From positions 16,562 through 80,561 of the IMG/VR virus record IMGVR_UViG_3300042154_002686: 64,000 nucleotides of DNA. One strand, written 5' to 3'. A model generated the notes under the pieces. The model worked only from the letters and a program-made list of their open reading frames with translations, was not told the origin of the DNA and searched no databases. A program made the translations under genes and the position numbers. This document shows positions 26,775 to 53,631 of this stretch, piece after piece (position 1 is the first letter of the stretch; each line of letters opens with the position of its first letter). This stretch comes from a virus.

Positions 26775-26969
26775 ATGACCCACGCCACCGCCACCGCCAC
26801 CGTTAAGACCGACTGGGACTCCCTCCCCCTCGGTGAAGACCTCTCCCACCTGTGCGGAGGTCGTAACAAGCACAAGACCGCCACCGAGGTGACCGACCTC
26901 GCCCCCTCGGGCGATGGCTGGAACATCCCCACCGCCTCGGCCATCCTCTCCGACCCCACCCTCGGCTAA
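26775..26969 (+). CDS. Cassette small protein, paralog of 31007-31207
   Basis: Shared KTDWD.LPLGE.LSHLCGGRNKH. Confidence 0.75.
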   Translation: MTHATATATVKTDWDSLPLGEDLSHLCGGRNKHKTATEVTDLAPSGDGWNIPTASAILSDPTLG

Positions 26970-27012
26970 CCACCGAGGCAACCCCTCCAACCCCTCCAAC
27001 CCTCCCACGCAC

Positions 27013-27231
27013 ATGACCACCGCCACCGCCCTCCCCGCCCTCCCGCCCGTCCTCCGCATCTCCCGCCCGACTCCTCTGACCACCGTCTGGTCTTATCTGG
27101 CCTCTGTCTCGGACGGAGACCGCATCGTCTTCCCCTGCGGTCTGCGGGTGACGGTCTCCGTCCGCAACCGCATGACCCTCGCCCTCATCATGGCGAAGCG
27201 AGGTCTCCGAGGCACGAAGCGAAACAGGTGA
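27013..27231 (+). CDS. Cassette small protein
   Basis: CCCACGCAC-ATG leader shared with the upstream gene. Confidence 0.65.
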   Translation: MTTATALPALPPVLRISRPTPLTTVWSYLASVSDGDRIVFPCGLRVTVSVRNRMTLALIMAKRGLRGTKRNR

Positions 27232-27260
27232 ACGCCTGTTCACGGTGAACGAAAGTTCAC
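27228..27260. promoter_or_regulatory. Tandem TGAAC-N4-GTTCA operator-like palindromes
   Basis: GTGAACgcctGTTCAC g GTGAACgaaaGTTCAC. Confidence 0.7.
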
Positions 27261-27343
27261 TCTGCGGTAGGTGCGGCGGTGCGTAAATTTCGCCACCGAA
27301 TTGTATCGCACAATGCGACCACATCGCCATGTTCATAGATGCC

Positions 27344-27484
27344 ATGAAGAAGCCCCCCCAGCCCAAGAAGCCCAAGACCGCCAAGACCACCAAGCCCCTC
27401 ACGGGCAAGGAACTCGCCAAGGAGGTGAACAAGTATCAAGGACTCGCCCGAGTCTCTCGGATGCTCGGCAACCTCTGGTCGTAA
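27344..27484 (+). CDS. Cassette basic peptide (46 aa)
   Basis: MKKPPQPKKPK...; ATG 79 nt after heptamer. Confidence 0.7.
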   Translation: MKKPPQPKKPKTAKTTKPLTGKELAKEVNKYQGLARVSRMLGNLWS

Positions 27485-27617
27485 GAACTACGGAGCCCCT
27501 GCGGGGGCTCCCTTTTTCGCAATGCGGTAGGTCGGTTAATTGACCGAAATCAGTCGAATTATTTTCTGGTATCAGACCGTCAAATCGCTACATTCATCTT
27601 CGCACCCAATAAACGCC

Positions 27618-27854
27618 ATGTCTCATAAACTCAATGTCCTCACCCTCGCCCGCACGAACGCCCTCGCCCGCATCCGCAATGTTGGCGACAACATCGCTGA
27701 TGCCAAGGAGAACCTTCGCCTCTCCGTCCTCAACCACGGAACTGGAAGCAAGGCGTGGAACTTCTGGAAGTCCGAACTCGCTCGCCATGACAGCGAGTGG
27801 ACTGAAGTCTGCAACGAACTGCGGGAAATCGACTGGGAACTCGGAAACAAGTAA
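27618..27854 (+). CDS. Cassette small protein
   Basis: MSHKLNVL...; fills unit up to terminator. Confidence 0.7.
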   Translation: MSHKLNVLTLARTNALARIRNVGDNIADAKENLRLSVLNHGTGSKAWNFWKSELARHDSEWTEVCNELREIDWELGNK

Positions 27855-27973
27855 GACGAAACGGGGAGCGAGTGCTCCCCTTTTTTGTGCCCCGAGGGTA
27901 GGCCGACCAGTGCGTAGATTTCGACAAAGATTTTGGTTTACTCGGACGATGGTTCAACTACTGTGATGGTCTC

Positions 27974-28141
27974 ATGCAACCCGCTCCCCTGCCCGACCTC
28001 ACTTACCTCTACATGCTCTCCGTTGAACTTGGAGACATTGCCCAATACTGCGACCGTGGTTCGCCCGAAGACCTCGCTTATCAGAAGGCGAAGCAAGACT
28101 ACCTCGATGCGGTCTTCATGGGCGAAGACGAAGAGGGCTAA
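27974..28141 (+). CDS. Cassette small acidic protein (55 aa)
   Basis: MQPAPLPDL...; ATG 78 nt after heptamer. Confidence 0.7.
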   Translation: MQPAPLPDLTYLYMLSVELGDIAQYCDRGSPEDLAYQKAKQDYLDAVFMGEDEEG

Positions 28142-28286
28142 AGCCCCCGCCCGAAAGGAGTGAGAGACCCCAAGCGGGTCTCTCTTTTTCGCTCTGCGGA
28201 TAGGCCGACCAATTGACCGAAATCAGTCGCACTTTGTTCTGGTATCCTGTCGGGTTTGTGCTACTGTGTCCTTGTTCCCAATACCC

Positions 28287-28487
28287 ATGATTACTAATGA
28301 CCATACCGCCATCTGCTCCCGATACGCCCACCTCGGTGACGCAGTCTGCTTTCGTCTCACCGCCATCGCCCGCACGATGCTCGTCATGCAGGGGCGACTT
28401 GCTCGCCTCGATAAGCGAGCGGGGGCTATGGCCGAACTTGCCCGATGCCGAGCCATGTGGTTCGAACTGACGGGGGAGAGGGTTTAA
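28287..28487 (+). CDS. Cassette small protein
   Basis: MITNDHTAICS...; fills unit. Confidence 0.65.
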   Translation: MITNDHTAICSRYAHLGDAVCFRLTAIARTMLVMQGRLARLDKRAGAMAELARCRAMWFELTGERV

Positions 28488-28612
28488 GACTCTCGCCCAG
28501 TTAGAACAGAAACGGAACCCATCGGGTTCCTTTTTTGTTCCCTGCGGGTAGGTCGCTACAACCGCCATTTTGCTCTCGACTTGGCCGATGCTTCTGCCAC
28601 TCTGTTGGTCTT

Positions 28613-28798
28613 ATGACCTCCTCCTCCTCCCGCTCGCTGGCCCTCGCCCTCGCCTCGCACGAGGCCCACCTGCTCGACCTCGCCCTTCGCAGGGCCGAGT
28701 GCGTAGCCATGGGCCTCAATCCCGAGGACTATGTCCCCGCTGACCCCGTCTTTGACGAGGAGGACTATCGTCCCATCGTGCGGAAACGCTACGGGTGA
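28613..28798 (+). CDS. Cassette small protein
   Basis: MTSSSSRSLAL...; stop overlaps operator. Confidence 0.7.
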   Translation: MTSSSSRSLALALASHEAHLLDLALRRAECVAMGLNPEDYVPADPVFDEEDYRPIVRKRYG

Positions 28799-28828
28799 AC
28801 GCCCGTTCACTGGTGAACATTTGTTCAC
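28795..28828. promoter_or_regulatory. Tandem TGAAC-N4-GTTCA operator-like palindromes
   Basis: GTGAACgcccGTTCAC tg GTGAACatttGTTCAC. Confidence 0.7.
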
Positions 28829-28912
28829 TTCGTGGGTAGGCTGGCTCCTGCGTAAAATTGGGCAACGATTTGTATCGACCCAAGCCAAGGAATGACCACA
28901 TTCATCTGTGCC

Positions 28913-29110
28913 ATGAAGAACGCATCCCTCCTCCCCCGCAACGCTCACCTCGCCATCAAGGAAGCCATCCTCGATGCTAAGGAAGCAAGGAACGAACTCA
29001 ACCGCCTCGGCTCCCGCTACCACGGAATGTCCGAGAAGGTCGAAGAGCCCATCAAGAGCCTCGAAACCCTCATCGCCCGCCTCGAAGCGGTTCTCCCCAA
29101 GGCCGAGTGA
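28913..29110 (+). CDS. Cassette small protein
   Basis: MKNASLLP...; ATG 79 nt after heptamer. Confidence 0.7.
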   Translation: MKNASLLPRNAHLAIKEAILDAKEARNELNRLGSRYHGMSEKVEEPIKSLETLIARLEAVLPKAE

Positions 29111-29242
29111 GGCCGAGGGTAAGAACCAGCGAGACCCCGAGTGGGGTCTCTTTTTTGGTCTGCGGGTAGGTCAGTTTGTGCATAGATTTAGACAAATAAT
29201 TTCATCGACTATGAGCATCGGATAGCCACATTCACCTCTGCC

Positions 29243-29518
29243 ATGACGCACTCCTCCTCCCCCGCCTCGCCCGTGTTCCTCGTCACCGTTCAGTCCGTAG
29301 AATACTACGGTGAACGCTACTACAAGTTCAAGGGCGGGTTCAATGTCCTCGTCTCCACGGACAAGGACGCTACGGCCTTCGGCCTCGTCCTCGAATACCT
29401 TGTGGCGAACAAACTCGCCTCGGGCTACTACCCGAAGCATGCCGAGCGGTTCGAGACCGAGGCAGATGCCCTCGCCACCCTCGACCCCGAATGGGAGACG
29501 GTCAGAGTCCGCCTCTGA
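29243..29518 (+). CDS. Cassette small protein
   Basis: MTHSSSPA...EYYGERYYKFKGG; ATG 79 nt after heptamer. Confidence 0.75.
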   Translation: MTHSSSPASPVFLVTVQSVEYYGERYYKFKGGFNVLVSTDKDATAFGLVLEYLVANKLASGYYPKHAERFETEADALATLDPEWETVRVRL

Positions 29519-29527
29519 GCGGAACAG

Positions 29528-29561
29528 GTGAACGGGTGTTCAGTAATGAACACTTGTTCAC
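29528..29561. promoter_or_regulatory. Tandem TGAAC-N4-GTTCA operator-like palindromes
   Basis: GTGAACgggtGTTCAG taa TGAACacttGTTCAC. Confidence 0.7.
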
Positions 29562-29658
29562 TTCGTGGGTAGGCCGACTGGTGCTTAGATTTCGCCACCG
29601 AATTATCTCGATTTTTTTAAAACGACCCCCATAGTAATGGATGCATCAAGCAACCCAC

Positions 29659-29802
29659 ATGAACGACCTCCATAACAAAATCACCAAACTCGAAAACCGC
29701 CTCGCCAAGCGATGCCACCTCATCGGCCCTCGCTTCCGTGCCGCCCTCGAAAAGCGTCTCGAAGCAATGTATCAGCAGTTCAACGCCCGCCTCGCCAAGT
29801 AA
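29659..29802 (+). CDS. Cassette basic peptide (47 aa)
   Basis: MNDLHNKITKLENRL... Confidence 0.65.
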   Translation: MNDLHNKITKLENRLAKRCHLIGPRFRAALEKRLEAMYQQFNARLAK

Positions 29803-29925
29803 GGCGAAAGGACTAACCGCCCCCTCACGGGGGCTTTTTGTTCTCTTCGAGGGTAGGCCGATTAATTGACCGTTCGCTCATTAAAAACGAGTTGCGTCAG
29901 CACCCCCACCGTTTACCTTCATCTC

Positions 29926-30207
29926 ATGGCAATCACGCCCCACGGAGGTAAAACGAGCGACTCCTCCCGCTCTCCCACGGAAGTCTACCAGATGCTCGTC
30001 AGCATCTCGCAAGCCATCCGAGACGGTCGGAACGGCCTCGACCCCTTCGGCCACAAGTTGGCCGACCTCATGTCCGACCTCTTGGACGAAGTCCGAGACG
30101 AGGTCGAAGCGGCACGGAAGGAGGAACTAATCCTCCGAGCCAAGCGAGCGGCTCAAAACCTCTCCGACGACCTTCGGGCTCACGCTGTCGAAGAACACAG
30201 AGAGTAA
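29926..30207 (+). CDS. Cassette small protein
   Basis: MAITPHGG...; fills unit. Confidence 0.7.
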   Translation: MAITPHGGKTSDSSRSPTEVYQMLVSISQAIRDGRNGLDPFGHKLADLMSDLLDEVRDEVEAARKEELILRAKRAAQNLSDDLRAHAVEEHRE

Positions 30208-30327
30208 GAAGAACGGAGACCCTTCGGGGTCTCCTTTTTTTATTTCGTGGGTAGGCCGCCCCGTGCGTAGATTTCGACAAAGAATTTTGTTTACTTCGGT
30301 CACGAATTGACCACATTCATCTTTGCC

Positions 30328-30552
30328 ATGACGCACTCCCCCGCACTCGATGCCCTCCTCGAAACCAACCCCGCACTCTGGTTCGCTTACCAGAACCACG
30401 CCAACTACAAGGCCAAGGCCAAAGCCCACGAAGAAAAGAAGGAGTGGGCCAAGGCCACTTACTACCACGAACGCTCCATTAGCACTATCGGCTTCATCCA
30501 CTCCATGGGCTACTCTGCCAAGAACATCGGCCAGCCCCGAGCAATCAAGTAA
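30328..30552 (+). CDS. Cassette small protein
   Basis: MTHSPAL...; ATG 79 nt after heptamer. Confidence 0.75.
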   Translation: MTHSPALDALLETNPALWFAYQNHANYKAKAKAHEEKKEWAKATYYHERSISTIGFIHSMGYSAKNIGQPRAIK

Positions 30553-30681
30553 GACGAGACGGGAGAGGCGAAAGCCTCTCTCTTTTTGTCTGCGGGTAGG
30601 TCTGATACTGCATAAAATCAAGCAACGAATTTTCTGGTATTCTACCGTGGATGCCGTAGTGTCATGGTCTCCCACCCAGCC

Positions 30682-30876
30682 ATGAACAAGACCAACCCAG
30701 AAGCCCGCCTCCGCCACATCGAAACCGTCCGTGCCCTGCGTCTCGCCCACGCCCGACACATGGCGAACTTCGACCGATACGCTCGCCTTGAAATGTTTGA
30801 GGCCGCACAGTATTGGCTCGGTCGGGCCAGCGAGGCCCACAAGCAACTCCTCGACCTTGGAGAGATTGCCATCTAA
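30682..30876 (+). CDS. Cassette small protein
   Basis: MNKTNPEARL...; fills unit. Confidence 0.7.
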   Translation: MNKTNPEARLRHIETVRALRLAHARHMANFDRYARLEMFEAAQYWLGRASEAHKQLLDLGEIAI

Positions 30877-31006
30877 TCGATGGTCAGACCCAACGAGAGC
30901 CTTCGGGCTCTCTTTTTTTCTCTACGAGGGTAGGTCTGCTGGTGCGTAAATTTCGCCAGCGATTGTCGTTTACTTTTGGCACGGGATGACCACATTCATC
31001 TTTGCC

Positions 31007-31207
31007 ATGACGCACTCCTCCTCCCCCGCAACGACCGCCACCAAGACCGACTGGGACAACCTCCCCCTCGGTGAAAACCTGTCCCACCTCTGCGGAGGTC
31101 GGAACAAGCACCCCCGCCTCGCCTCCGAGGTCGAGACCCAGACGAAGGACGACACGGTTCGCCCCTTCACTGCGAGCGAACTCCTCGGGGATGTTAGCAT
31201 CGGCTAA
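31007..31207 (+). CDS. Cassette small protein, paralog of 26775-26969
   Basis: Start MTHSSSPA matches 29243; body matches 26775. Confidence 0.75.
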   Translation: MTHSSSPATTATKTDWDNLPLGENLSHLCGGRNKHPRLASEVETQTKDDTVRPFTASELLGDVSIG

Positions 31208-31339
31208 CCCCCGATGTTAGTTCTCAAACAAGAGCCTTCGGGCTCTTTTTTTGTCCCTGCGGATAGGTCTGTCTGTGGGTAAAATTCGACAAAGATTTTT
31301 GTTGTATCGGACGAGGAAAGCCCCCAGACTGTCGGAGTA

Positions 31340-31552
31340 ATGAAACTCCTCGCAACCGACATGACCCACAACGACATTCAAATTGCCAAGAACGCAACGA
31401 TGGATGCCTTCGACACCCTCGAAGCCATCAAGTGCAAGTATCCCGCCCTCGGGGAAGAGTGGGACAGCATCATCGCTGTCCAGCGTTTGCTGGTGAACCA
31501 CACAATTGCTCTCTCCAATCTTGAAAACGCTCGAAACGGTTTGAAGCAGTAA
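31340..31552 (+). CDS. Cassette small protein
   Basis: ATG 79 nt after heptamer. Confidence 0.7.
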   Translation: MKLLATDMTHNDIQIAKNATMDAFDTLEAIKCKYPALGEEWDSIIAVQRLLVNHTIALSNLENARNGLKQ

Positions 31553-31684
31553 GAACAAGCGAGCCCCAAGTGGGGCTCTCTTTTTGTCTGCGAGGGTAGG
31601 TCCGAGACTGCGTAAAAATCGCCAGCGATTGTTATCGATTTTTTTGAAAAACAGTCCATGGTTGTAGTCGCACCAACGCAACCC

Positions 31685-31894
31685 ATGATTAATCCCAATG
31701 CCGAGTTACTCCTCCACCTGTTCGCCAGCCAGAGCCTTCCCCTGCTCCAATGGACTGCTCGCAAGCGACAGAACTCCCTCTACATGCTGACCGTAAGGCA
31801 GGACATTACGGTAGACCAGCATATGAACTACATGGACAATCTTGACGAAGTTGTAGCCTTCGTTCACGAATACGACCCGCCCTCGGTCAAGTGA
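31685..31894 (+). CDS. Cassette small protein
   Basis: MINPNAELL...; fills unit. Confidence 0.65.
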   Translation: MINPNAELLLHLFASQSLPLLQWTARKRQNSLYMLTVRQDITVDQHMNYMDNLDEVVAFVHEYDPPSVK

Positions 31895-32036
31895 GGGAAA
31901 GGTCTAATCGCCCCCTCACGGGGGCTTTTTATTTAGACCCCGAGGTAGGTCTGGCAATTGACCGAACGCTCATAAAATGGTGCTCGCTTTTTATGCGTTG
32001 GTGGTTCACAGTGTTGGAGTAATCAATAACCCTCCC

Positions 32037-32174
32037 ATGCATAACATCATCTCGTTCACCTCCGAAGAGTCCCTCGCCAAGTTCCTCTCGAACTTTGACA
32101 TTACCACGAACCGCTTCACGGTCGAACAGACCTCGAAGAACGGTTTCCTCCTCACCTTCTACCCGAGCATCTAA
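32037..32174 (+). CDS. Cassette peptide (45 aa)
   Basis: MHNIISFTSEE... Confidence 0.65.
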   Translation: MHNIISFTSEESLAKFLSNFDITTNRFTVEQTSKNGFLLTFYPSI

Positions 32175-32348
32175 CCCACCCGAAAGGGCTCACCTCTACG
32201 GGGGTGGGCTCTTTTATTTTCTACGAGGGTAGGTGCGGAGGTGCGTGAAATTCGGCACACTTTTTTCTGGTATTTCGAGGTCTGTGTGCTACTGTGATGT
32301 CGCACTCAGCAACACCCACCCACACCCCCACCCACCACCACCACCACC

Positions 32349-32600
32349 ATGTTCGTCTACACCGAAGAATACGCCCGCCAGCAGTCCGAAGCCCGCTCCG
32401 AGGCCATCCGTGCCCGTGCGGAATACGAGAAGACCGTCACCCGCCAGAACGCCATGGCCGAGGCGTGGGATGCGGTCGAGAAGGCCGAGGACGACTGCCG
32501 CAAGGCCAAGGGCACGGTCGCCCGCAAGGAGGCCAAGAAGGCTCTGGCTTACGCTGACTGGGTCTGGAAGACCATGAACGACCCCAAGTTCAAGGTGTAA
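32349..32600 (+). CDS. Cassette small helical protein
   Basis: MFVYTEEY...; preceded by (CAC)n leader. Confidence 0.75.
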   Translation: MFVYTEEYARQQSEARSEAIRARAEYEKTVTRQNAMAEAWDAVEKAEDDCRKAKGTVARKEAKKALAYADWVWKTMNDPKFKV

Positions 32601-32704
32601 TCCCAAACGAGCCCCTCACGGGGCTTTTTTGTGCCCTCTGCGGGTAGGTCTGGCGAGCCGCCATTTTGTTGTTGCTTTGCGGGCTGGTTGTGTCACTCTC
32701 TTCT

Positions 32705-32840
32705 TATCGCTCCTGCGATATCAGTCTAATCGGTCTTCCCAGCAGTTAGTAGCCACTAACTCTAAGGCGGACACTGCTGGGATACGCCTCCCGATAGACT
32801 AACATAAGACCACCCCTTCGGGGGTGGCAGTTTGTTTTTG
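32705..32840 (+). ncRNA. Structured non-coding RNA occupying a cassette slot
   Basis: Heptamer, promoter and UUCG terminator present but no ATG; stems 32723-33/32791-800 and 32737-46/32773-82; possible pseudoknot 32765-69/32785-89. Confidence 0.7.
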
Positions 32841-32846
32841 TGACTA

Positions 32847-32879
32847 GTGAACATTTGTTCACCATGAACATTTGTTCAC
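32847..32879. promoter_or_regulatory. Tandem TGAAC-N4-GTTCA operator-like palindromes
   Basis: GTGAACatttGTTCAC ca TGAACatttGTTCAC. Confidence 0.7.
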
Positions 32880-32959
32880 CCTGCGGGTAGGCAACTTATA
32901 CGACCGAACGCTCATAAGATAAAACTCGCACAAGCCCCCCGCCATGCTACTCTGATGAC

Positions 32960-33208
32960 ATGGAAATTACTCCACGCCAGCAGGGGCACGAAGCCGCCCG
33001 CTTTAACGAAGAAAACGAGCCGTATTTCGGCCCGCAGGATGACGGGTGCTACGGCACTGTCCCGACCGACCGCCCTGCCCGCCGCCCAAGGGTGGCAAAG
33101 CGGCCCCAGACCTTCGTGGAGGACACCACGCACCCGAGGGGCACGAAGGCGTGGTATCTCCTCAATAAGGGCTGGCATGCCGCCCAGCACCGCCCATACT
33201 GGGACTAA
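32960..33208 (+). CDS. Cassette small protein
   Basis: MEITPRQQG...; ends before terminator. Confidence 0.7.
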   Translation: MEITPRQQGHEAARFNEENEPYFGPQDDGCYGTVPTDRPARRPRVAKRPQTFVEDTTHPRGTKAWYLLNKGWHAAQHRPYWD

Positions 33209-33336
33209 GGGCGAAAGCCCTCCCGAGCCCCAAGGGGGGCTCTTTTTTTTACTACGAGGGTAGGTCGCACGAAGGGTCGAAAAAGAAAATTATGGTGTTG
33301 CATGAACCGATTTTTTAACCACATTCATAGTCGATT

Positions 33337-33531
33337 ATGAAACTCGTATTCCTCATTCAGCAACCGACCGAAGAAGGCGAACCCCTCTTCTGGTCTAACC
33401 TCGATGGCTGGGTCTCCAAGGACTGTGCCGACCGCTTCTCTGGCGAAGAGCAGTTGACCACCCCCTTGCCCGCTGGTGGCATCTGGGACTATACCACGGT
33501 CTGGTCTACTATCGACTTCCCCCAGTCGTAA
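33337..33531 (+). CDS. Cassette small protein
   Basis: LFWSNLDGWV...F...LP.GG.W; ATG 79 nt after heptamer. Confidence 0.75.
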   Translation: MKLVFLIQQPTEEGEPLFWSNLDGWVSKDCADRFSGEEQLTTPLPAGGIWDYTTVWSTIDFPQS

Positions 33532-33655
33532 TCAGTCGGAAGCCCCTTCGGGGGCTTCTTTTTTGTCTACGAGGGTAGGTCTCTGATTGCGTAAATTTTG
33601 GCACAGAATGTTCTCGATTTTTGCCAAAGACCTGCGAGTATGTATGCCTTCACCC

Positions 33656-33952
33656 ATGAGCAACCCAACCAAATACCCGAAGTTCCGACTCCTCCTCTCC
33701 AACTCCGACCTGTCCCCTCGGGCGGTCGCCCGCAAGGTCTGTGACCAGATGGCGAACCGCCTCGCTGGGGTCGGACTGGACGACCTGCCCGACACGGCTG
33801 GTCTCTGCAACGAGGTGGACGAGATGGAAAGCACCGTTGCCAACTGGGGCACGGAACGCAACCCCTCGGACGAGCAAATCAAAGCCCTCTACGATTGGGC
33901 GAAGGAGGCGGTCACGAACCTCCTCTATGAGGAAGGCTTCGAAGTGGAGTAA
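33656..33952 (+). CDS. Cassette small acidic protein
   Basis: MSNPTKY...GVGLDDLPD. Confidence 0.7.
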   Translation: MSNPTKYPKFRLLLSNSDLSPRAVARKVCDQMANRLAGVGLDDLPDTAGLCNEVDEMESTVANWGTERNPSDEQIKALYDWAKEAVTNLLYEEGFEVE

Positions 33953-34070
33953 CCCCAAACCAGCCCCTTCGGGGGCTTTTTTGTGCCCATCGAGGGTAGG
34001 TCGGACACTGCGTAAAAATCGGCAAAGATTTTTCTGGTTTTGGGGCAAAAGTGTGTTAGTGTGTTGGAGT

Positions 34071-34244: not shown

Positions 34245-34407
34245 CCGCCAGTCAGTCCTTCTCAAAGACCCTCACGGGTCTTTTTTTGTCACCACGGGGA
34301 TAGGTCCGACGGTGCGTAAAATTGGGCAACGATTTTTCTGGTTTCTGGGACAAGGTGTGTTAGTGTCATGGAGTCGAAAGACACCCAACCCAAACACCCA
34401 CACACAC

Positions 34408-34641
34408 ATGACCACGCAATCGTTCAACCACATGGAAGTCTTCACCTGTCGCATGGCTCTCCGCCTCGCCTCCGAGAGCAAGGGCAAGATGCACCTCACG
34501 AACCCCGTGCTGGTTCGCAGGACTGCCACCCGCCTCCTCACGGCCATCGGGGTGCAGGGCATCACGAACCGCACCCGCTGGGAGACCCTGCACCAGACCT
34601 TCGAGGCGACCTTCGGGGTTCAGATTGACGAGCAGAAGTAA
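34408..34641 (+). CDS. Cassette protein, paralog of 37777 and probably 35721
   Basis: GTCGAAAGAC leader; ALRLAS...W.TL...FE.TFG. Confidence 0.75.
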   Translation: MTTQSFNHMEVFTCRMALRLASESKGKMHLTNPVLVRRTATRLLTAIGVQGITNRTRWETLHQTFEATFGVQIDEQK

Positions 34642-35298: not shown

Positions 35299-35440
35299 GC
35301 CACGAAAGCCACGGTCTCGTAATACGGAACGCCCCCCGATGGGGGCTTTCTTTTTGTCTACGAGGGTAGGCATGTTAATTGACCGAACTTTCATAAAGAA
35401 TGTTATTGAAAATTTTAAAAATTGGTCTACATTAGCGTCT

Positions 35441-35575
35441 ATGAAATCCAAGCCCTCCCTCATTCAGATTATGGCTTCCGTCCGCAAGGTCGGGGGTCGC
35501 CCTTCGGTCGCCCTCGCCTCTAAAAAGTCGAAGGCTCGCAATGACCGAACCTCTTGGAAGCGAGACCAAGAGTAA
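35441..35575 (+). CDS. Basic 44-aa peptide, paralog of 44833-44973
   Basis: IM.SVRKVGGR.S....KK.K.R..R..WK. Confidence 0.75.
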   Translation: MKSKPSLIQIMASVRKVGGRPSVALASKKSKARNDRTSWKRDQE

Positions 35576-35720
35576 TCCCAATCGGGAGGCTACGGCCTCC
35601 CTTTTTTGTGCCCCGTGGGGGTAGGCCGTTGGGTGCGTAAAAATCGGCAGTCTTTTTTCTGGTATTTGGTCGGGGATGTGGTAGTGTCATGGAGTCGAAA
35701 GACACCAAACACCAAAACAT

Positions 35721-36287: not shown

Positions 36288-36400
36288 ACCAGACAGGGCT
36301 CACCTCTACGGGGGTGGGCTCTTTTATTTGATGCGGGGGTAGGTATGTGAAGGGCTCAAATAGTGCTTTACTTTGGACGAAGAACTGTCATCTTACTTCT

Positions 36401-37383: not shown

Positions 37384-37510
37384 TCAGAAAGGGGTGTCCA
37401 GAAATGGGCATCCCTTCTTTGTGCCCTGCGGGGGTAGGTCTCTCAATTGACCGAAAATAGTCGATTAATTTTCTTGTAAATTGAGCCATGCCATGCACAA
37501 TGACTCTCGT

Positions 37511-37651
37511 ATGATTACTAAAAGCATTGTCGAAACATTCACCGAAGTCCTCGCCATGACGATGGGCTTTGCGGCTCTCGCCCTCCTCTGCGTGGACGCA
37601 ACCCAAGAATACCAGAGGCGTAAGCGGTTGAAGGGACGCAAGGGGCTTTAA
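37511..37651 (+). CDS. Cassette membrane peptide (46 aa)
   Basis: MITKSIVETFTEVLAMTMGFAALALLCV...; ATG 79 nt after heptamer. Confidence 0.65.
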   Translation: MITKSIVETFTEVLAMTMGFAALALLCVDATQEYQRRKRLKGRKGL

Positions 37652-37776
37652 GCCCTTTGACCCCGAGGGTAGGCCCGTTGGTGCGTAAAATTAGACAAAG
37701 ATTTTGCTGGTATTTGCCAGAGATTAGTGTAGAGTAGTGGAGTCGAAAGACACCAAACACCAACCCACCCAAACAC

Positions 37777-38031
37777 ATGAGCATCATCCAGATTGACGGC
37801 TTCGAGCAACTCCAAATCTTCGCCTGTTCCCAAGCATTGGACATGGCGAGCAAGCACAAGTTGTTCGTCACCCGCCCCGAAAACATCCGTGGCACAGCCC
37901 TCCATTGGCTTGCCAAGTGTGGCAACCCCCAGAAGCCCCGTGCTTCTTGGAAGACCCTCGCCAAGGAGTTTGAGTTTACCTTCGGGGAACTCATCCAGAT
38001 GAAGAAGGAACGCAAGGAAGCGACCGAGTAA
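37777..38031 (+). CDS. Cassette protein, paralog of 34408
   Basis: Same leader; R.SW.TL...FE.TFG. Confidence 0.75.
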   Translation: MSIIQIDGFEQLQIFACSQALDMASKHKLFVTRPENIRGTALHWLAKCGNPQKPRASWKTLAKEFEFTFGELIQMKKERKEATE

Positions 38032-40966: not shown

Positions 40967-41212
40967 ATGAGCAATATGTCTTACTGTCGGTTCAGCAACA
41001 CGGCCTCGGATATGCAGGACTGCGTGGACGAGTGGAACGAAGGAGTGTCGAGCAAGGATGAAGCCATCGCCCGCAAGGAGATGGTCGAACTTGCCGAGCG
41101 TATCCTTGAACTCTATCAGCAGGATAGAGGCATGGTCAACAACCTCGAACTCAATGCCGAAGGCAGGGAGATGGAGGGCGATGACGAGGACGAGACCGAG
41201 GAGGAGGGTTAA
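40967..41212 (+). CDS. MSNMSYCRF-type phage protein, paralog of 49088
   Basis: MSNMSYCRF.NT..D..DCV. Confidence 0.8.
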   Translation: MSNMSYCRFSNTASDMQDCVDEWNEGVSSKDEAIARKEMVELAERILELYQQDRGMVNNLELNAEGREMEGDDEDETEEEG

Positions 41213-41343: not shown

Positions 41344-42177
41344 ATGACCACCACCACCGCCCCCAAGTCCACGGTTGCCGATGTTATCGCTGACCGCTTC
41401 ATCAAGTCCCTCGAAAACGGAGTCGCCCCTTGGCAAAAGCCGTGGGCGAGCGTCCGCCCCCAGAACGGTGTCAGCCGTAAGCCTTACAAGGGCGTAAACG
41501 CCTTCATGCTGGCCTTCTTCGGGGGTGATGACTACTTCCTCACTTACAAGCAAGCCAAAGCCCTTGGCGGGCAGGTGGAAGAGGGTGCAAAGGGTATCCC
41601 CGTGACCTTCTGGAAGCGTATGGAGAAGAAGGACAAAAGCGGGGACTATCTGGTTTGCCGATACTACACGGTTTTCCCCGTGTCCAAGTGCGGACTCCCC
41701 GACTTCAAACGGGCGAACAAGGTCATTACCTTCTCCCCCGTAGAACTTGCCGAGGTCGTTCTTGCGAAGAACACGACCCCCGTCAGCCACGGCGGAGCCT
41801 CGGCTTACTACACGCCCTCCAAGCATGCAATCCAGATGCCCAATAAGGAGTCCTTCAAGTCGGTTGCTAACTATTACGCAACCCTCTTCCATGAGATTGG
41901 GCACTCCCTCGGGGAGCACTCCTCGGACTCCTTCGGGGGTGAGGTCTACGCAAAGGAGGAACTTGTGGCCGAACTTTTCGCCTCGATTGCCCTCCAACAT
42001 TGCGGACTCCTCGAAAGCGTAAACTTCGACAATTCGACCGCTTACCTCGGGTCTTGGCTGAAAGCCCTTAATGATGATAAGACTCTCATCCAGAAAGCCA
42101 GCACGGAAGCCTTCAAGCGGTGGGAGAAACTGATGGGCAAGGTCGAAGAGGAGGTCGAGGAGGAGGTCGAGGCATAA
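41344..42177 (+). CDS. ardC: ArdC-family ssDNA-binding antirestriction protein (DUF1738 + zincin)
   Basis: PWQKPW, YKGVN, FLTYKQA..LGGQV, AYYTP..H.IQMP, YYATLFHEIGH, YAKEELVAE, YLGSWL. Confidence 0.88.
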   Translation: MTTTTAPKSTVADVIADRFIKSLENGVAPWQKPWASVRPQNGVSRKPYKGVNAFMLAFFGGDDYFLTYKQAKALGGQVEEGAKGIPVTFWKRMEKKDKSGDYLVCRYYTVFPVSKCGLPDFKRANKVITFSPVELAEVVLAKNTTPVSHGGASAYYTPSKHAIQMPNKESFKSVANYYATLFHEIGHSLGEHSSDSFGGEVYAKEELVAELFASIALQHCGLLESVNFDNSTAYLGSWLKALNDDKTLIQKASTEAFKRWEKLMGKVEEEVEEEVEA

Positions 42178-44792: not shown

Positions 44793-44832
44793 ATCTCGAC
44801 AAAAGAGAAAAACCATGCACAATGACTCTCGT

Positions 44833-44973
44833 ATGAAAACCAAATCCATCAAGTTCATCGACATTATGACCAGCGTCCGCAAGGTCGGGGGTCGGGCTTC
44901 CTCTGTCTTCATCGGCAAGAAAGCCAAGGTTCGTGCCAACCGCCACGCTTGGAAGAAGGAGGAACTCGTCTAA
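44833..44973 (+). CDS. Basic 46-aa peptide, paralog of 35441
   Basis: IMTSVRKVGGRASSVFIGKKAKVRANRHAWKKEE. Confidence 0.75.
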   Translation: MKTKSIKFIDIMTSVRKVGGRASSVFIGKKAKVRANRHAWKKEELV

Positions 44974-45819: not shown

Positions 45820-46125
45820 ATGAACCTCGGCATCGAATACAAAATCAAATACTTCACCAACTACGAAACAAAGGAGGAGAAGGAGATTGTTATCACCATG
45901 GACAAGGTAGACAACCTCTACATTGGCAAGGGCAATTCCTGCCGTTGCGGATGCGGGGGCGACTATTTTGAAATTGATGAAAACGAGCGAGCCATCGAGA
46001 AATCCCTGCGACAAATGTCCAGCGGTGAATACGAGGTTCGCTCCATTGAGGACTACATCTTCGAAATCACCACCAGCGTAAATGGTGACTACGAGCGTGT
46101 GAAAACGCTCTACCTCAAAAAATAA
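45820..46125 (+). CDS. Hypothetical protein
   Basis: Y.GK...CRCGCGGDY; own promoter. Confidence 0.7.
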   Translation: MNLGIEYKIKYFTNYETKEEKEIVITMDKVDNLYIGKGNSCRCGCGGDYFEIDENERAIEKSLRQMSSGEYEVRSIEDYIFEITTSVNGDYERVKTLYLKK

Positions 46126-46912: not shown

Positions 46913-46914
46913 TC

Positions 46915-48249: not shown

Positions 48250-48289
48250 GCATACATGATGCATACCTTTCTTCTAATGTCAAGACCAA

Positions 48290-48460: not shown

Positions 48461-48555
48461 AAGACACATGATGCATAACTTGGGTTGGATTGCAACACAA
48501 TTCTTTCTGAAAGATTGTGCTTGAAAAAACAAGAAAGCCATGCATCATGTGTGGT

Positions 48556-48747: not shown

Positions 48748-48810
48748 ACTATTTTCTTTACTCTTAACAAATTTCTGCTATACTGTTTTCTCATCACCAA
48801 TAATACACAT

Positions 48811-49068: not shown

Positions 49069-49087
49069 TCTAAACCCAAATACAAAA

Positions 49088-49303
49088 ATGAGCAACATGT
49101 CTTACTGTCGGTTCCAGAACACCAAGACCGACCTCCGAGATTGCGTCCGCAACTTCTGGTCTGTCTCCTCGGAAGAGGAGGCGGAAGCCCGAAAGCGTCT
49201 GGTTAAGTATGCCAAGGACATTCTGGAACTCTACGACCAGAACCCCGAGGATGTTGACAACTGCGTCTTTGACGAGGACGCAGAAGACGAGGACGAAGGT
49301 TAG
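49088..49303 (+). CDS. MSNMSYCRF-type protein, paralog of 40967
   Basis: MSNMSYCRFQNT..DL.DCV. Confidence 0.8.
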   Translation: MSNMSYCRFQNTKTDLRDCVRNFWSVSSEEEAEARKRLVKYAKDILELYDQNPEDVDNCVFDEDAEDEDEG

Positions 49304-49427
49304 TCCTCACGCCCCCGAAAGGGGGCTTTCTTCTTGTCCCCGTGGTAGGTATTTGAAGACCTTAAATAGTTGAAGATTAATCTTGAATAATTCAAAATTT
49401 CTGACATGCTGTTTGTCTATCACCAAC

Positions 49428-49727
49428 ATGAACAACGAAGACAACACCCTCAAAACCGCATCCATCTACAAGACCATCGACACGATGACGACCCGCAAGG
49501 CTTCGTCCTTGGAGGAGGTCGTGGCTATCGCAGTAGACCCCGAACTGAAAGGCATCCTGTTCGGTCGTCTCCCTGTGCTTGAAGTCAACGACCCGTCCTT
49601 CTCGCCTCTGGACGACATTGAAGGCGGTGTTCCCGCCAAGCGTTTCATGCTCAACTACCGAAGGAAGACTTACTATGTCAATACCGAGGGCTACACTTAT
49701 TGTCGCTACCTCTGCGAAATCGTTTGA
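49428..49727 (+). CDS. Hypothetical protein
   Basis: YYVNTEGYTYCRY. Confidence 0.7.
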   Translation: MNNEDNTLKTASIYKTIDTMTTRKASSLEEVVAIAVDPELKGILFGRLPVLEVNDPSFSPLDDIEGGVPAKRFMLNYRRKTYYVNTEGYTYCRYLCEIV

Positions 49728-49775
49728 CATTTAAACCAAACTCTGCATACTGTATCTTCTATCACCCATAATACC

Positions 49776-50075
49776 ATGCATAAAGACCAACTACCAGAAC
49801 TGCACAAGAAGCGTTATCACGCCCAACAGGAGGCCGTAGATAAAGCCCGTAAAATCCTCGACAAGGCGGGGGTCAAGTGGATTTTCGCCACGGACGAGGA
49901 TGTTCTCACCGCCCTCGAAGGCGATGAGCGACTTCCCCTTGTCTGGAAGGAGGGGGGCTTTGACCTCATCGAAGACATTAACGATGCTTGCATCGACAAC
50001 CTTATGAACAGTTGGGGCGACTGCCTCTCTTACGCAATTGACAATACCATCGGCACGGAGGACGAGGGCGAATAA
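49776..50075 (+). CDS. Hypothetical acidic protein
   Basis: Own TTGACA...CATACT promoter. Confidence 0.65.
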   Translation: MHKDQLPELHKKRYHAQQEAVDKARKILDKAGVKWIFATDEDVLTALEGDERLPLVWKEGGFDLIEDINDACIDNLMNSWGDCLSYAIDNTIGTEDEGE

Positions 50076-50076
50076 C

Positions 50077-50463
50077 ATGGGACTCGACCAATACGCATAC
50101 TCCATTAGCAAGGGAGACATGGACTTGCTCCAAACGCAGGAATTCCTTGACGGTGAACTCGGCATCGAGTCGCAAGAGGAACTCATGTATTGGCGTAAGC
50201 ATGCCGACCTCAATGGCTACATGGAGAAGATGTATCACCAGCAGGGGCACATGGATGACTTCAATGGGCAACCGCTTGAATTGGACAAGGACGACCTCTT
50301 GGAACTCAAAGCAATCATCGAGGGGGACGGCCTTGAAACGGCAAGCGGTTTCTTCTGGGGATACTCTACGCCAGAAGACGATATCCCAACCTTGGAGTTC
50401 ATCGATAAGGCTTTACAGGCCATCAAGGACGGGAAGGTAGTCTATTACTGTTGCTCTTGGTAG
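50077..50463 (+). CDS. Phage hypothetical protein (MGLDQY...YWRK...GFFWG type)
   Basis: MGLDQY, YWRKH, GFFWG, VYYCCSW motifs. Confidence 0.75.
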   Translation: MGLDQYAYSISKGDMDLLQTQEFLDGELGIESQEELMYWRKHADLNGYMEKMYHQQGHMDDFNGQPLELDKDDLLELKAIIEGDGLETASGFFWGYSTPEDDIPTLEFIDKALQAIKDGKVVYYCCSW

Positions 50464-50833
50464 AGTGACTCACAGCCCCCTTTACGGGGGCTTTTTGCGT
50501 ATGCCACAAGGACGACAGGGGGATTATTAAGGGGGGCGGCACGGGGGATGGTCAAGGGGAAACAAAACCCCCACTCCATAATAAGATAAACTTATAGACA
50601 GGATTAGAGTTTATGATATTAGTGAAATTTATAACCCCCCATACATTTACTAATGACGGGGGTAGGTTCCTGTAGCAATCGACATATTGTTTTGGATGTG
50701 TCTGCTAAACAAGCACTTGCGGATGACTTTAATCTTTCTTTCATCTATTTCAGATTTGGTGCTTGCTATTCTAATTAAAGCATGCATGATGAATGTCGTT
50801 CCAACAAACACCAAACCAAAAAACACAAAACAC

Positions 50834-51706
50834 ATGACCACCAACCTCATCACCACCATCGCCTCCGAAGCCATTGAGCGTCAGACGGAAAAGTTCGACT
50901 ACACGGTCGAGCAAGTCCCGTTCCACCTGCCCAACGGCTCGGCTACCCGCTTCTTCGCCAATGTCCGCACGGACAACGGTGAAGTCCTCGGTTGCGTTAC
51001 CGACCGTTATGAAGTCCTCCAAAACTCCGACATGCTCGGAGCCTCGGAAGACCTCTTCAAGACGGCTGGCTTCTCCAACTTCAAGCGTAAGACGGTCTGC
51101 ACCAATGGCGGTGCTCGTATCCGTGCCATTTACGACTTCCCCGACCACGGGTTCAAGTTGTCCAACGGCAACGACCTTACCTTCCGCTTGAAGGTTCAGA
51201 ACTCCTTTGACGGGTCTCTCCGAGCCTCGTTCCAAGTCGGCCTCGTCCGTCTGGTCTGCACGAATGGCCTTGCCCTGCCGATTGCGGCTGTCGGCATGAC
51301 CCGCAAGCACACGCAGACGCTGGATGCTAACACCCTCCGTGATGCGTTCGCCCGTTCCATCAATGCGTTCAAGGACTCGGCTCCGCTGTTCAACAACATG
51401 ATTGAGACCAAGGTCTCGCAGGAAGAGGGCAACAGCATCCTGCTGGGCTTCGAGAAAGCCAAGGTCATGTCGGAACGCATGCGTGAGGGCATCCAGTCGG
51501 TCTGGGAGCGTCCGACTTATGCGGAAGACAGCGGTCGCAACCTGTTCAACCTCTACAACGCTGTGACCCAGCACCTTACCCACTCGGTTGAGGGCAAGCG
51601 GTTTGAACTTGCCGAGCGTGTGAACACGGGAACGCTCAACGCCATCTCCAAGGCGGTTCGCAATCGGAGCATCAACAGTCTGATGTTCACCCCCTCGGAT
51701 AACTAA
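50834..51706 (+). CDS. DUF932-family protein
   Basis: RTD..VLG.V.DRY..LQN, NSFDGS, RLVCTNG, LFNLYNAVT. Confidence 0.8.
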   Translation: MTTNLITTIASEAIERQTEKFDYTVEQVPFHLPNGSATRFFANVRTDNGEVLGCVTDRYEVLQNSDMLGASEDLFKTAGFSNFKRKTVCTNGGARIRAIYDFPDHGFKLSNGNDLTFRLKVQNSFDGSLRASFQVGLVRLVCTNGLALPIAAVGMTRKHTQTLDANTLRDAFARSINAFKDSAPLFNNMIETKVSQEEGNSILLGFEKAKVMSERMREGIQSVWERPTYAEDSGRNLFNLYNAVTQHLTHSVEGKRFELAERVNTGTLNAISKAVRNRSINSLMFTPSDN

Positions 51707-51802
51707 TCCGAGCCAGAGGGAGACAGGTGACAAGGGTGGGGGCTAACGCCCCTGCCCTTTCTTTGTTTCCAGACCCCAACATTCACCATACAATAAATTT
51801 AC

Positions 51803-52147
51803 ATGAGTAAAGGAAATTTAAAGGAGGGTTATTGGAAACTTGCCATCTTTCCAGACGGCATGTCGTGCCCTCGTTGCAATGGGGTTCACTTCCACCCCCA
51901 TGCGACAATCCTGCCAGACCTCTATGCGGAAGCAAAAGACCCCAAGGGAAAAGACGGAAAGACAAACCTATGGATTGCTCGGTCGGAGTGTTTAAGTGCT
52001 GGATGCAAGGGCTTTATAGATTGGACATTCCATCCAGACTACTGCGGGGGGAACAGGGTTGGAAATGAGTTTAGAAGCATTGTGGAGTGGAGCACAAACC
52101 CCCTCGGTCTTGAACTGTATAAAGATTACCCACGAAGTATTCAGTAA
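51803..52147 (+). CDS. Hypothetical Zn-binding protein
   Basis: CPRC and CLSAGC motifs. Confidence 0.5.
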   Translation: MSKGNLKEGYWKLAIFPDGMSCPRCNGVHFHPHATILPDLYAEAKDPKGKDGKTNLWIARSECLSAGCKGFIDWTFHPDYCGGNRVGNEFRSIVEWSTNPLGLELYKDYPRSIQ

Positions 52148-52201
52148 ATAGTTTAAGATTGTGGTTGCATGAACTGCGAAAGTATGCATCATGTATGGTC
52201 T

Positions 52202-52438
52202 ATGACTAATCCGCTATACATCGTTACCGTAGTTTCAAATACCCACGCAACCCTTATGTCCACCTTCCATAACATGAAGGAAGCAGAGGAGTTCGTGGCT
52301 AAAAGCACACGCCCCGAACAGCAGAACCATCCCACCATCGGTTGCTGGGCTACTATCACGGCTCTCTATCCCGTTAAGTGGGACAACGACCGCCTTGACT
52401 CTGAAAATGAGTGGTCTCAACCCGTCCGACTCAACTAA
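52202..52438 (+). CDS. Hypothetical protein, paralog of 53374
   Basis: H.TL......EAE..V...WAT.T. Confidence 0.7.
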   Translation: MTNPLYIVTVVSNTHATLMSTFHNMKEAEEFVAKSTRPEQQNHPTIGCWATITALYPVKWDNDRLDSENEWSQPVRLN

Positions 52439-52480
52439 TTTGCTTGCAATCTAAACCACAATCTGAATACTGACTCTACT

Positions 52481-52780
52481 ATGAAAAACAAAGTAATTCA
52501 CGACATTATCGAAAGCAAGGTTGTCTACGAGTTCACCAACTCTGCCCAGAAGCATGAGGCGGGGCTTGTGGACTTTGTTGCGAAGTCCTGCGGCTACCCC
52601 TCCAATAAGGCTTGGCGAGACCAACTCGACATGTCCCTTGGCATCTACCTTGAAGACTACGCACGGGAGAAGGACTTGGTTATTGCCTTCTTCCATGAGG
52701 ACGACATGGGCTACTTTGATATCGTCTACACGGATGAGGTGGTAGACAGATTTTCGGGCTGGATGAAAAATAAGTCTTGA
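52481..52780 (+). CDS. Hypothetical protein
   Basis: Own TTGCAA promoter. Confidence 0.65.
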   Translation: MKNKVIHDIIESKVVYEFTNSAQKHEAGLVDFVAKSCGYPSNKAWRDQLDMSLGIYLEDYAREKDLVIAFFHEDDMGYFDIVYTDEVVDRFSGWMKNKS

Positions 52781-52812
52781 AATAAACCTCAATCCATGCA
52801 TCCTGTATGTCT

Positions 52813-53115
52813 ATGACCAAACCCAAGAAAGCATCACTCCTCTCCACCTGCCCCCACCTTGCTGTCGCTTATGAAGGCGGTGGCAATTGGGGCTGGGTGT
52901 ATTACGACTCTTATCAGAAGGCCAAGGAGGTCGCTGATTGGATTAAGTCGGGATACAACAGCAAGTTCTCCTGTGCGGGTCGCTGTGATTTAGATGAGGC
53001 TGGGACTGAAACCAAGTCCCTGCTCACCCTCTGGTGTGTCCATTACCATTACGACAACACCAATCGTCCCGCATCCATTCAGAACTGCCCCAACATCCGA
53101 ACGCTATGGAAGTAA
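52813..53115 (+). CDS. Hypothetical protein
   Basis: Own promoter. Confidence 0.6.
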   Translation: MTKPKKASLLSTCPHLAVAYEGGGNWGWVYYDSYQKAKEVADWIKSGYNSKFSCAGRCDLDEAGTETKSLLTLWCVHYHYDNTNRPASIQNCPNIRTLWK

Positions 53116-53333
53116 ACAATGACCTTATTGCCCGCCTCGGCTTCGAGGCTTGGGCTGACAACCTCATCGTAAATGCCTTGGAGGATAGCCACGCCTTGCC
53201 TTACAAGGCAGAGGACGACAATGGGACTATCCTTTCCCTTGAACAGCAAGGAGAAGACCTCCACGCCCTTGTGAGGGCGTATGACAGCGGCTGGCAGACC
53301 CATGAAAGAATTATTAAGAATGTCTGCAAATAA
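53106..53333 (+). CDS. Hypothetical protein
   Basis: MEVNND...; overlaps the upstream stop. Confidence 0.55.
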   Translation: MEVNNDLIARLGFEAWADNLIVNALEDSHALPYKAEDDNGTILSLEQQGEDLHALVRAYDSGWQTHERIIKNVCK

Positions 53334-53373
53334 TCCTTGCCACAACAGTAACAACATGCATACTGACTCTTCT

Positions 53374-53631
53374 ATGACCAACACCACCATCGACCCCATC
53401 CCGTCCGAACTACATCTTGTCATTGTTATGACCAGAGAACACAGCACCCTTGCCTCCTTCTGGGATACGAAGGAACAGGCGGAACAGCATGTCAAAGACC
53501 TCACCTCCAACTACATCGACCCAGAGCGTGGCTATCTTTGGGCTACCGTCACCAAGGTTGATGTAAAGTCTTGGAAACCGAACATGCCAGAGTGCAAGAT
53601 TGCTTGGGTTCACTCCAAGCAAATCTCTTAA
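53374..53631 (+). CDS. Hypothetical protein, paralog of 52202
   Basis: HSTLASFWDTKEQAEQHV...WATVT. Confidence 0.7.
   Translation: MTNTTIDPIPSELHLVIVMTREHSTLASFWDTKEQAEQHVKDLTSNYIDPERGYLWATVTKVDVKSWKPNMPECKIAWVHSKQIS

Follow-up and report, generated by a model that had tools for sequence, protein, structure and literature searches.

The window analyzed here is a 64,000-nucleotide (nt) stretch of DNA, bases 16562–80561 of a single 80,561-bp virus record (IMGVR_UViG_3300042154_002686) whose completeness is estimated at 83%. It comes from an uncultured phage of about 80.5 kb whose DNA is present in lake-water metagenomes. From 26237 to 50666, the plus strand of the window carries an array of approximately 45 one-gene expression cassettes, which are recognized by their repeated boxes, terminators, and modules. 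As judged by sequence comparison, the modules between the genes and the open reading frames (ORFs) that they flank have different histories. Cassettes come and go singly at module boundaries, and the modules are homogenized within a genome. We consider it probable that this early region is a row of autonomous one-gene cassettes, in which the unit between genes serves both as an expression unit and as recombination homology.

Repeated modules and cassette anatomy

Between 26 and 58 kb, the window contains 73 pairs of exact repeats of at least 16 nt, compared with none in each of 10 Markov shuffles and two in a structural control region of 32 kb. Of these pairs, 59 lie between genes, in an array that is about 65% coding; the others comprise six across an ATG, two across a stop codon, and six inside ORFs. 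The longest exact repeat is 35 nt. Homology between modules takes the form of exact stretches of 16–35 nt embedded in approximately 100 nt of 60–90% identity.

Nearly every gene from 26.2 to approximately 47 kb forms a separate cassette. The elements of a cassette follow each other in the order of a G+C-rich hairpin with a T-run, a GGGTAGG box, block A or block B, −35-like and −10-like elements, a leader, and an ATG with its ORF. The repeated DNA between genes measures about 100 nt and belongs to repeat families of 10–19 copies. The box, GG[GAT]TAGG, occurs 46 times within 24 kb on the plus strand and not once on the minus strand. The promoter blocks are TGCGTAAAATTCGRCAAAGATTTTT (block A) and TTAATTGACCGAACNNTCATAAA (block B). 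The −35-like elements (CTTGTA, CTGGTA, or TCGACA), the −10-like elements (TAGTGT, TACTGT, or CACAAT), and A/T-rich blocks are found at fixed positions. Terminator-like sites number 81, compared with 24 ± 5 in shuffled sequences, and a G+C-rich hairpin with a T-run precedes nearly every box. Position, conservation, and anatomy suggest that the module is a promoter and terminator unit. The ORFs of the array encode 44–125 amino acids (aa), mostly without an assigned family.

The host probably starts translation of these genes without a Shine-Dalgarno sequence. Shine-Dalgarno-like words are found at 2 of 73 array genes and at 4 of 24 late genes. The leaders are short and A-rich or CA-rich, and an A directly follows the ATG in 73% of the array genes.

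Several of the exact repeats cross start codons. The cassettes, leader and terminator modules, and ORFs located below are on the plus strand unless stated otherwise, and ORFs are named by their first position. The original prediction described a common 5′ module, CCACATTCAYCTYTGCC-ATGACGCACTCC..., at genes 29243, 30328, and 31007. This module is borne out by a 32-nt exact repeat at 30308/30987 (TGACCACATTCATCTTTGCCATGACGCACTCC) and a 27-nt exact repeat at 29239/31003, both of which cross start codons. It had also been proposed that one module heads the unrelated genes 37511 and 44833, and a 24-nt exact repeat at 37491/44813 (CCATGCACAATGACTCTCGTATGA) does cross the start codons of these two genes. 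In the cassette 37511 (37432–37651), this module at 37491–37514, which comprises the −10-like element CACAAT and the start region, is identical to 44813–44836.

The cassette 28913 (28820–29110, ORF 28913–29110) carries the CCACATTCATCTGTGCC leader, which is common to the group of 29243, 30328, and 31007. The stretch CCTCCTCCCCCGCAACG is present in both 28913 and 31007 and is read in different frames, as SLLPRN in the former and SSSPAT in the latter. Since 28913 reads this stretch in the other frame, the likeness reflects inherited DNA and not selection on the peptide. Beyond the ATG, no position around the 73 start codons carries more than 0.7 bit of information, so a general constraint on the start region cannot produce 23–33 identical bases within unrelated ORFs.

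Sharing is also seen in leaders and behind genes. A leader module with a small GAAA hairpin and a CA-rich leader (TAGTGTCATGGAGTCGAAAGACACC) precedes ORF 34408 (34361–34641), and a leader of this type also heads 35721, 36105, 37777, and 40658 (copies at 35682, 36068, 37734, and 40620). Exact copies of the hairpin leader number four in the window and one in the related genome G001, which is described below. A terminator module of 35 nt at 32185–32219 is identical to 36295–36329, and the two copies lie behind unrelated genes, representing the sharing of a 3′ module. Outside the window, the 21-nt 5′ module CCACATTCAYCTNTGCCATGA did not occur in IMG/VR, and its nine matches in JGI metagenome contigs were all unrelated, chance matches without boxes. 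The pattern of a box plus block B was found at two loci in IMG/VR, neither of which is similar in DNA to the window.

Some cassettes depart from the general design. In four of them, two tandem palindromes of the form GTGAAC-N4-6-GTTCAC replace the G+C-rich hairpin before the box (27230–27262, 28795–28828, 29527–29560, and 32846–32880). These palindromes resemble either an alternative terminator or the operator site of a protein that binds DNA as a dimer. The ORFs 26606, 26775, and 27013 (26596–27040) have no promoter modules. The near-repeat CCCNCCCRCGCAC-ATGACC ahead of each of them resembles a translational leader module that lacks a promoter. Across four consecutive cassettes at 30594–31943, the box-to-box spacings are 334, 333, and 333 nt. 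These cassettes were considered as diverged tandem duplicates, and this idea was rejected: the in-register identity of their bodies is 25–32%, no higher than out of register.

Chimeric front ends and paralogous bodies

The cassette 31007 (30878–31207) is composed of a 5′ module at 30878–31037 and a body from 31034, with the junction at 31034–31037. In local alignments, 30878–31037 aligns to the cassette 29243 (29114–29518, ORF 29243–29518) with 74% identity over 163 columns, and 30892–31021 aligns to the cassette 30328 (30199–30552, ORF 30328–30552) with 80% identity. The start MTHSSSPA is common to 29243 and 31007 and lies in the 27-nt repeat at 29239–29265, and the exact repeat with 30328 joins 30308–30339 to 30987–31018. 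The following stretch, 31034–31131, aligns to the body of ORF 26775 (26775–26969) with 84% nucleotide and 50% amino acid identity (E 8e-20). ORF 26775 belongs to the KTDWD...GGRNKH family and is a paralog of the 31007 body, but it lacks its own promoter module and is preceded by a different leader, CCCACCCACGCAC. The front end of 31007 is shared with 29243, 30328, and 28913, while its body, 31034–31131 and beyond, is shared with 26775. Because the relationships of front end and body disagree, a recombination event at approximately 31034 is required.

The original prediction assembled 31007 from the start of 29243 and the body of 26775. The abutting tracts support the chimera, but 29243 is probably not the donor. 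All four database relatives of 30328 (75–97% identical) start with MTTF.FAM(T/K)HSPALDALL, which corresponds to the translated leader plus MTHSPA. In contrast, MTHSSSPA is found in none of the nine database relatives of 29243, which start with MNIENTASS, METPSSS, or MENLGNLLAP; the conserved body of this family begins at LVSVQSVEYYGERYYKFKGG. From this distribution of starts, the shared front end is most likely native to the 30328 family, with 31007 and 29243 having received it from a cassette of the 30328 type. The 5′ modules of the database homologs are deduced here from N-terminal residues only. The KTDWD body of the 31007/26775 family has at least three kinds of N-terminus among database proteins. 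Profile searches of IMG/VR with the 29243 and 31007 families returned no relatives.

Dispersed paralogs were examined by blastp or by Smith-Waterman alignment with shuffles. In addition to 26775/31007, the proposed pairs 34408/37777 (37.5%, 2e-10), 35441/44833 (50%, 2e-11), and 40967/49088 (49%, 1.5e-19) are paralogous. The ORFs 52202–52438 and 53374–53631, which delimit the stretch 52202–53631, are distant paralogs (29% identity, E 2e-6, z 9.2), and paralogy of 53665–53862 and 53934–54152 (stretch 53665–54152) is weak (z 6.4). Two proposed members were not retained. ORF 35721 is only marginally similar to 34408 (z 5.5) and not to 37777 (z 2.3), although it clearly shares the leader GGAGTCGAAAGACACC, a small GAAA-loop hairpin, with both. 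The other, 55328, is a minus-strand gene without significant similarity to 53665 and 53934 (z values of 2.5 and 0).

Bodies and front ends are combined differently among these paralogs. Gene 44833 (44796–44973) has neither a box nor an upstream block. It has its body in common with 35441 and its front end, the 24-nt module, in common with 37511, but not both with either gene. The cassette 35441 (35364–35575) carries the paralogous body behind an unrelated 5′ module, and its first five codons are also those of the unrelated 48811. In the cassette 37777 (37667–38031), both module and body are like those of 34408. ORF 40967 (40967–41212) has its own module, while its paralog 49088 (49088–49303) has none. 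In the lake contigs X2 and X4, which are introduced below, a 40967-like ORF follows the same promoter-less leader as the single ortholog in G001. The 40967 cassette may be a copy of a 49088-type gene that gained a promoter module.

A related genome and lake-metagenome contigs

When 20 kb of the array served as a megablast query, none of 50,697 deposited phage records matched, and no deposited phage genome is close. The array was compared with G001, a 56-kb relative in IMG/VR whose terminase is 86% identical in amino acids. The structural, replication, and recombination genes of G001 are collinear with those of the window at approximately 75–85% nucleotide identity. The array genes are 68–84% identical in nucleotides, and their order is scrambled. 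For the 33 shared array ORFs, 10 of 32 adjacencies are kept, whereas about two would be expected at random. Breakpoints were compared between the two genomes, as the original prediction had suggested, and homology ends at the edges of ORFs. Each homology block within 26–46.5 kb corresponds to one ORF, starts at most 57 nt before its ATG, ends at most 12 nt from its stop codon, and crosses no intergenic module. The G+C-rich left part of the array, 26.3–33.3 kb, is almost wholly missing from G001.

The cassettes of G001 have the same design but a different box. TGCTAGG occurs 17 times on the plus strand of G001 and is absent from the window, and GGGTAGG does not occur in G001. All 12 orthologous cassettes that were compared have a 110-nt front end that is closer to a non-orthologous front end of its own genome than to that of its ortholog. 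The G001 orthologs of 35721 and 36105 bear other hairpins. On these comparisons, the modules evolve in concert within genomes, which implies that either modules have repeatedly been copied onto each other or ORFs have repeatedly been moved into local modules.

Two further observations were made in G001. The gene at 45820–46125 is inverted and relocated there (69% aa identity), beside the minus-strand gene 55328–55549, and it is the one inverted gene. Upstream of the 35441 ortholog, a stretch at L011:3113–3160 that ends in ...GGTTCGACTCCCTCCGTCTCCTCCA resembles the 3′ half of a tRNA; ARAGORN calls no tRNA in it.

Near-identical strains were compared through contigs of four other lake metagenomes, aligned on 26–46 kb. 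Since these are contigs and not reads, the absence of a form carries no meaning. Two runs from different studies contain 99% and 80% of the words of the array. The cassette 31340 (31270–31608) is missing in X3 and X5, which come from two studies. The joint, located in the 8-nt spacer behind the box, links 31269 and 31609 through six private letters, with a net loss of 333 nt. It brings the rare GGATAGG box of the left cassette together with the A block of the right cassette. The missing cassette is exactly one 333-nt unit of the 30594–31943 series. X5 also lacks the cassette 29926 (29844–30247), with a joint from 29843 to 30248 that leads from one pre-box spacer to the next.

Larger replacements are found in the same contigs. 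X3 and X5 each swap four or five cassettes for one junction that bears its own GGGTAGG (28829 to 30263; 27887 to 29592). Both have the promoter block 34301–34348 in place of 30604–30645. X5 also connects the front end of 27974 (through ATGCAACCC) to position 31042, with 32 private letters in between. By base count, this fusion is in frame with the KTDWD body and represents a further front end on a 31007-type body. Most joints contain private letters and no shared overlap. The outcome that would have refuted the original prediction was therefore not observed: the shared segments in the window exceed chance and promoter constraint, and junction polymorphism exists among its relatives.

One joint was set apart. 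The cassettes 30328 and 30682 (30308–30986) are skipped in an X2 contig of 1878 nt that is otherwise 100% identical, and the joint falls on the 32-nt repeat. This skip could be a real deletion variant or an assembly artefact at k = 31. Because 32 is k+1 of the Logan assembler, and because of the depth inside the skipped part, the joint was not counted as evidence. A 10.5-kb skip in X4 (side 21) and a high-depth joint in X2 (side 23) were too weak for use.

Recombination genes, competing explanations, and known systems

RecE-, RecT-, SSB-, and RuvC-like genes had been noted at 58.4–62.2 kb, and family matches agree with these assignments. The RecE-like PD-(D/E)XK exonuclease (59219–60172, minus strand) matches PF12684 (3.7e-25) and phrog_412, exonuclease VIII (7.5e-68). 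The RecT-like single-strand annealing protein (60126–60977, minus strand) matches PF03837 (25.7 bits, cut-off 24) and phrog_561 (3.5e-24). An SSB-like protein (58441–58866, minus strand; phrog_378, 1.7e-6) and a RuvC-like Holliday junction resolvase (61719–62246, plus strand; phrog_1770, 1.1e-7) are encoded nearby. The RecE-like and RecT-like genes overlap at 60126–60172, so that a predicted exonuclease adjoins a predicted annealing protein. The recombination genes are conserved in G001. On substrates of 78% identity, the efficiency of RecT/RecE pairs is comparable to that of lambda Red and about 100 times that of RecA (De Paepe et al. 2014, PMC3945230).

From this known behavior of the enzymes, we infer that the RecE-, RecT-, SSB-, and RuvC-like proteins of the phage perform the recombination. 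The unit between genes would be a portable expression unit, as its anatomy suggests. Recombination at the homology between genes would delete, insert, duplicate, and reorder cassettes. It would also homogenize modules within one genome and exchange front ends among ORFs. These outcomes are seen in the comparison with relatives. Because the conserved tract continues through the start codon, crossovers a few codons into an ORF would give N-terminal chimeras such as 31007. The original prediction regarded the modules as crossover points for phage-encoded recombination. They do coincide with the points of cassette exchange in G001 and in the lake contigs, whereas the role of RecE/RecT is suggested by analogy.

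Several points weigh against this reading. Matches to sigma-70 promoters are only weakly enriched (17, compared with 9.4 ± 2.8), by a strict E. coli consensus. Several box-to-box joints share only about nine identical nucleotides, which is short for RecT-type annealing, and the sole joint exactly on a long repeat is the possible artefact in X2. Furthermore, selection would retain only recombinants that are joined between genes, so the location of joints within modules is no proof of a causal role of the modules. The population data consist entirely of contigs, and promoter function is deduced from position and conservation.

It is unlikely that constraint alone accounts for the array. The modules would then be alike because of a shared need for a promoter, a box, and a start without a Shine-Dalgarno sequence, without any part in recombination, and cassettes would have been moved by rare illegitimate recombination or independent 'moron' insertion, with selection for intergenic joints. 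The clearly regulatory position of the modules, the joints that share only about nine nucleotides, and a weak general preference for A-rich codons 2–5 agree with this account. However, it does not explain exact identities of 24–35 nt inside modules that are otherwise 60–80% alike, the extension of identity for 23–33 nt into unrelated ORFs, or a shared 17-mer that is read in two different frames. The genome-specific modules in all 12 orthologous cassettes and the switch of the entire box between related genomes need copying between modules, beyond constraint.

A speculative extension, which we hold to be improbable, is that the oriented box and the tract through the start codon form a dedicated 'socket'. 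A phage factor would recognize the box, at which cassettes would leave and re-enter the genome, for example, as mini-circles and with no need for an integrase. If this were the case, any small ORF could be placed behind a promoter, a start codon, and a few initial codons that are already present. The array would then be a self-homogenizing, integron-like means of capturing anti-defence genes and not a passive by-product of repeats.

Dedicated site-specific exchange, in which the oriented GGGTAGG box would be an integron-like or Chi-like recombination site for a phage protein and cassettes would be cut out and pasted in there, appears very unlikely. The 7-mer is indeed strictly oriented and present once per cassette, and most well-supported joint ends in relatives lie within approximately 20 nt of a box. 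The box has also been switched as a set between lineages, as if it co-evolved with a binding protein. However, tyrosine and serine recombinases (PF00589 and PF00239) are absent from the whole 80.5-kb record, which is an estimated 83% complete, and this makes an integron-like mechanism unlikely. Integron cassettes also differ from those of the array, each of which has its own predicted promoter, and crossovers are also found in leaders and just past the ATG, away from the box. The fixed location of the box between terminator and promoter block fits a transcriptional role better. Finally, the notion that repeats misled the metagenome assemblers and that order, chimeras, and joints are unreal is barely credible: the X2 joint on a repeat of k+1 and a relative contig (L002) that stops exactly at the first box would fit it, but exact repeats of at most 35 nt are below read length, the words of the array recur in runs from different studies, the order in G001 belongs to a distinct genome that differs by about 25% in sequence, most joints have private letters without shared overlap, and N-terminal variants occur independently in protein databases.

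Large genes on the minus strand, including those for terminase, portal, protease, major head protein, and primase, extend to 25.9 kb, and the plus-strand array of small ORFs begins at 26.2 kb, with a coding frame that is visible through its high third-position G+C. An ArdC-like anti-restriction gene (41344–42177, plus strand; PF08401 2.6e-26, PF18818 4.8e-28, phrog_7245 1.3e-49) lies inside the array, which also contains a DUF932 gene (50696–51706). Because of these two genes, 26.2–50.7 kb looks like an early anti-defence and host-takeover region. The G+C content is 55–57% in the left part of the array (26000–34000), compared with 42–52% in the remaining window. The most similar modules are found in this left part, nearly all of which is absent from G001, and it may have been recently acquired or expanded. 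Eleven tRNA genes are clustered at 56946–58380 on the minus strand, between the array and the recombination genes. The first anticodon position is T in all except Tyr (gta) and Trp (cca), and G001 has a similar cluster of 10.

If the reading as recombining one-gene cassettes holds, modular shuffling of the kind known from T4-type phages extends to an unrelated freshwater phage with RecE/RecT-type genes. The process is visible at three levels: within a genome, between two related genomes, and among near-identical lake strains. Added features are the concerted evolution of the regulatory modules, in which the box was switched completely, and crossovers just inside ORFs that lead to N-terminal chimeras of small early proteins. 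Arrays of this type bear anti-defence genes, here an ArdC-like gene, so the mechanism is relevant to the turnover of counter-defence repertoires in phages. The cassette design, with an insulating terminator, a promoter, and a leader without a Shine-Dalgarno sequence, may also supply a list of parts for hosts in which translation makes no use of Shine-Dalgarno sequences.

Morons, which are found in lambdoid and other phages, are genes with their own promoter and terminator inserted between phage genes. The cassettes resemble them as autonomous promoter-gene-terminator inserts with accessory functions. However, morons are usually single, unrelated, and without shared flanks, whereas approximately 45 cassettes with homologous flanks stand in a row here. 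With integron arrays, the array shares the one-directional arrangement of small single-gene cassettes, the repeated separator, and cassette-by-cassette presence and absence. Unlike in integrons, no integrase was found in the record, the cassettes bear their own promoter-like module and terminator, and the repeated element is regulatory and not attC.

Relaxed homologous recombination by phage Rad52-like and RecT recombinases has been described for phages that exchange DNA with prophages (De Paepe et al. 2014, PMC3945230). As in that system, a RecT/RecE-like pair is encoded by the phage, and mosaics arise via short diverged homologies. According to that work, internal repeats are usually missing from phage genomes, whereas the genome analyzed here is full of them.

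The closest known system is the shuffling by promoter-early stem-loops (PeSLs) of T4-type phages, and the array is a variant of it. A genome contains approximately 50 PeSLs, each a composite of promoter and stem-loop that measures about 100 bp (Arbiol et al. 2010, PMC2839356; Comeau et al. 2014, PMC4122927). The promoter is an early, sigma-70-like one with an AT-rich upstream region, and the stable stem-loop acts as a terminator or attenuator. PeSLs are located in hyperplastic regions upstream of ORFans and mediate indels, replacements, and mini-circles, the latter being circular excision products of exchange between neighboring motifs (PMC2839356, PMC4122927). They have been described so far in T4-type myoviruses only, and the papers on them that were found from 2015 onward concern T4-like or jumbo myoviruses. 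Like PeSLs, the modules of the array, which are predicted promoter/terminator units of about 100 bp, recur many times in a plastic early region and precede small ORFans. In both systems, the motifs delimit the indels, replacements, and rearrangements of order that distinguish related phages. The shuffled gene carries its own expression signals, which are predicted ones here, and the predicted hairpins correspond to the stem-loop terminator. Several features are different. The phage of the window is not of the T4 type, with 80.5 kb and recombination genes of the RecE/RecT type in place of UvsX, although T4 core genes were not searched individually. Its predicted terminator is a separate hairpin with a T-run before the promoter, whereas the stem-loop of PeSLs lies within or next to the promoter boxes. 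Shine-Dalgarno sequences are lacking, and the leaders are short and CA-rich. An additional box is strictly oriented and lineage-specific (GGGTAGG in the window and TGCTAGG in the relative), and the approximately 45 cassettes form a single uninterrupted row. Finally, unlike in PeSLs, the conserved tract crosses the start codon, leading to N-terminal chimeras.

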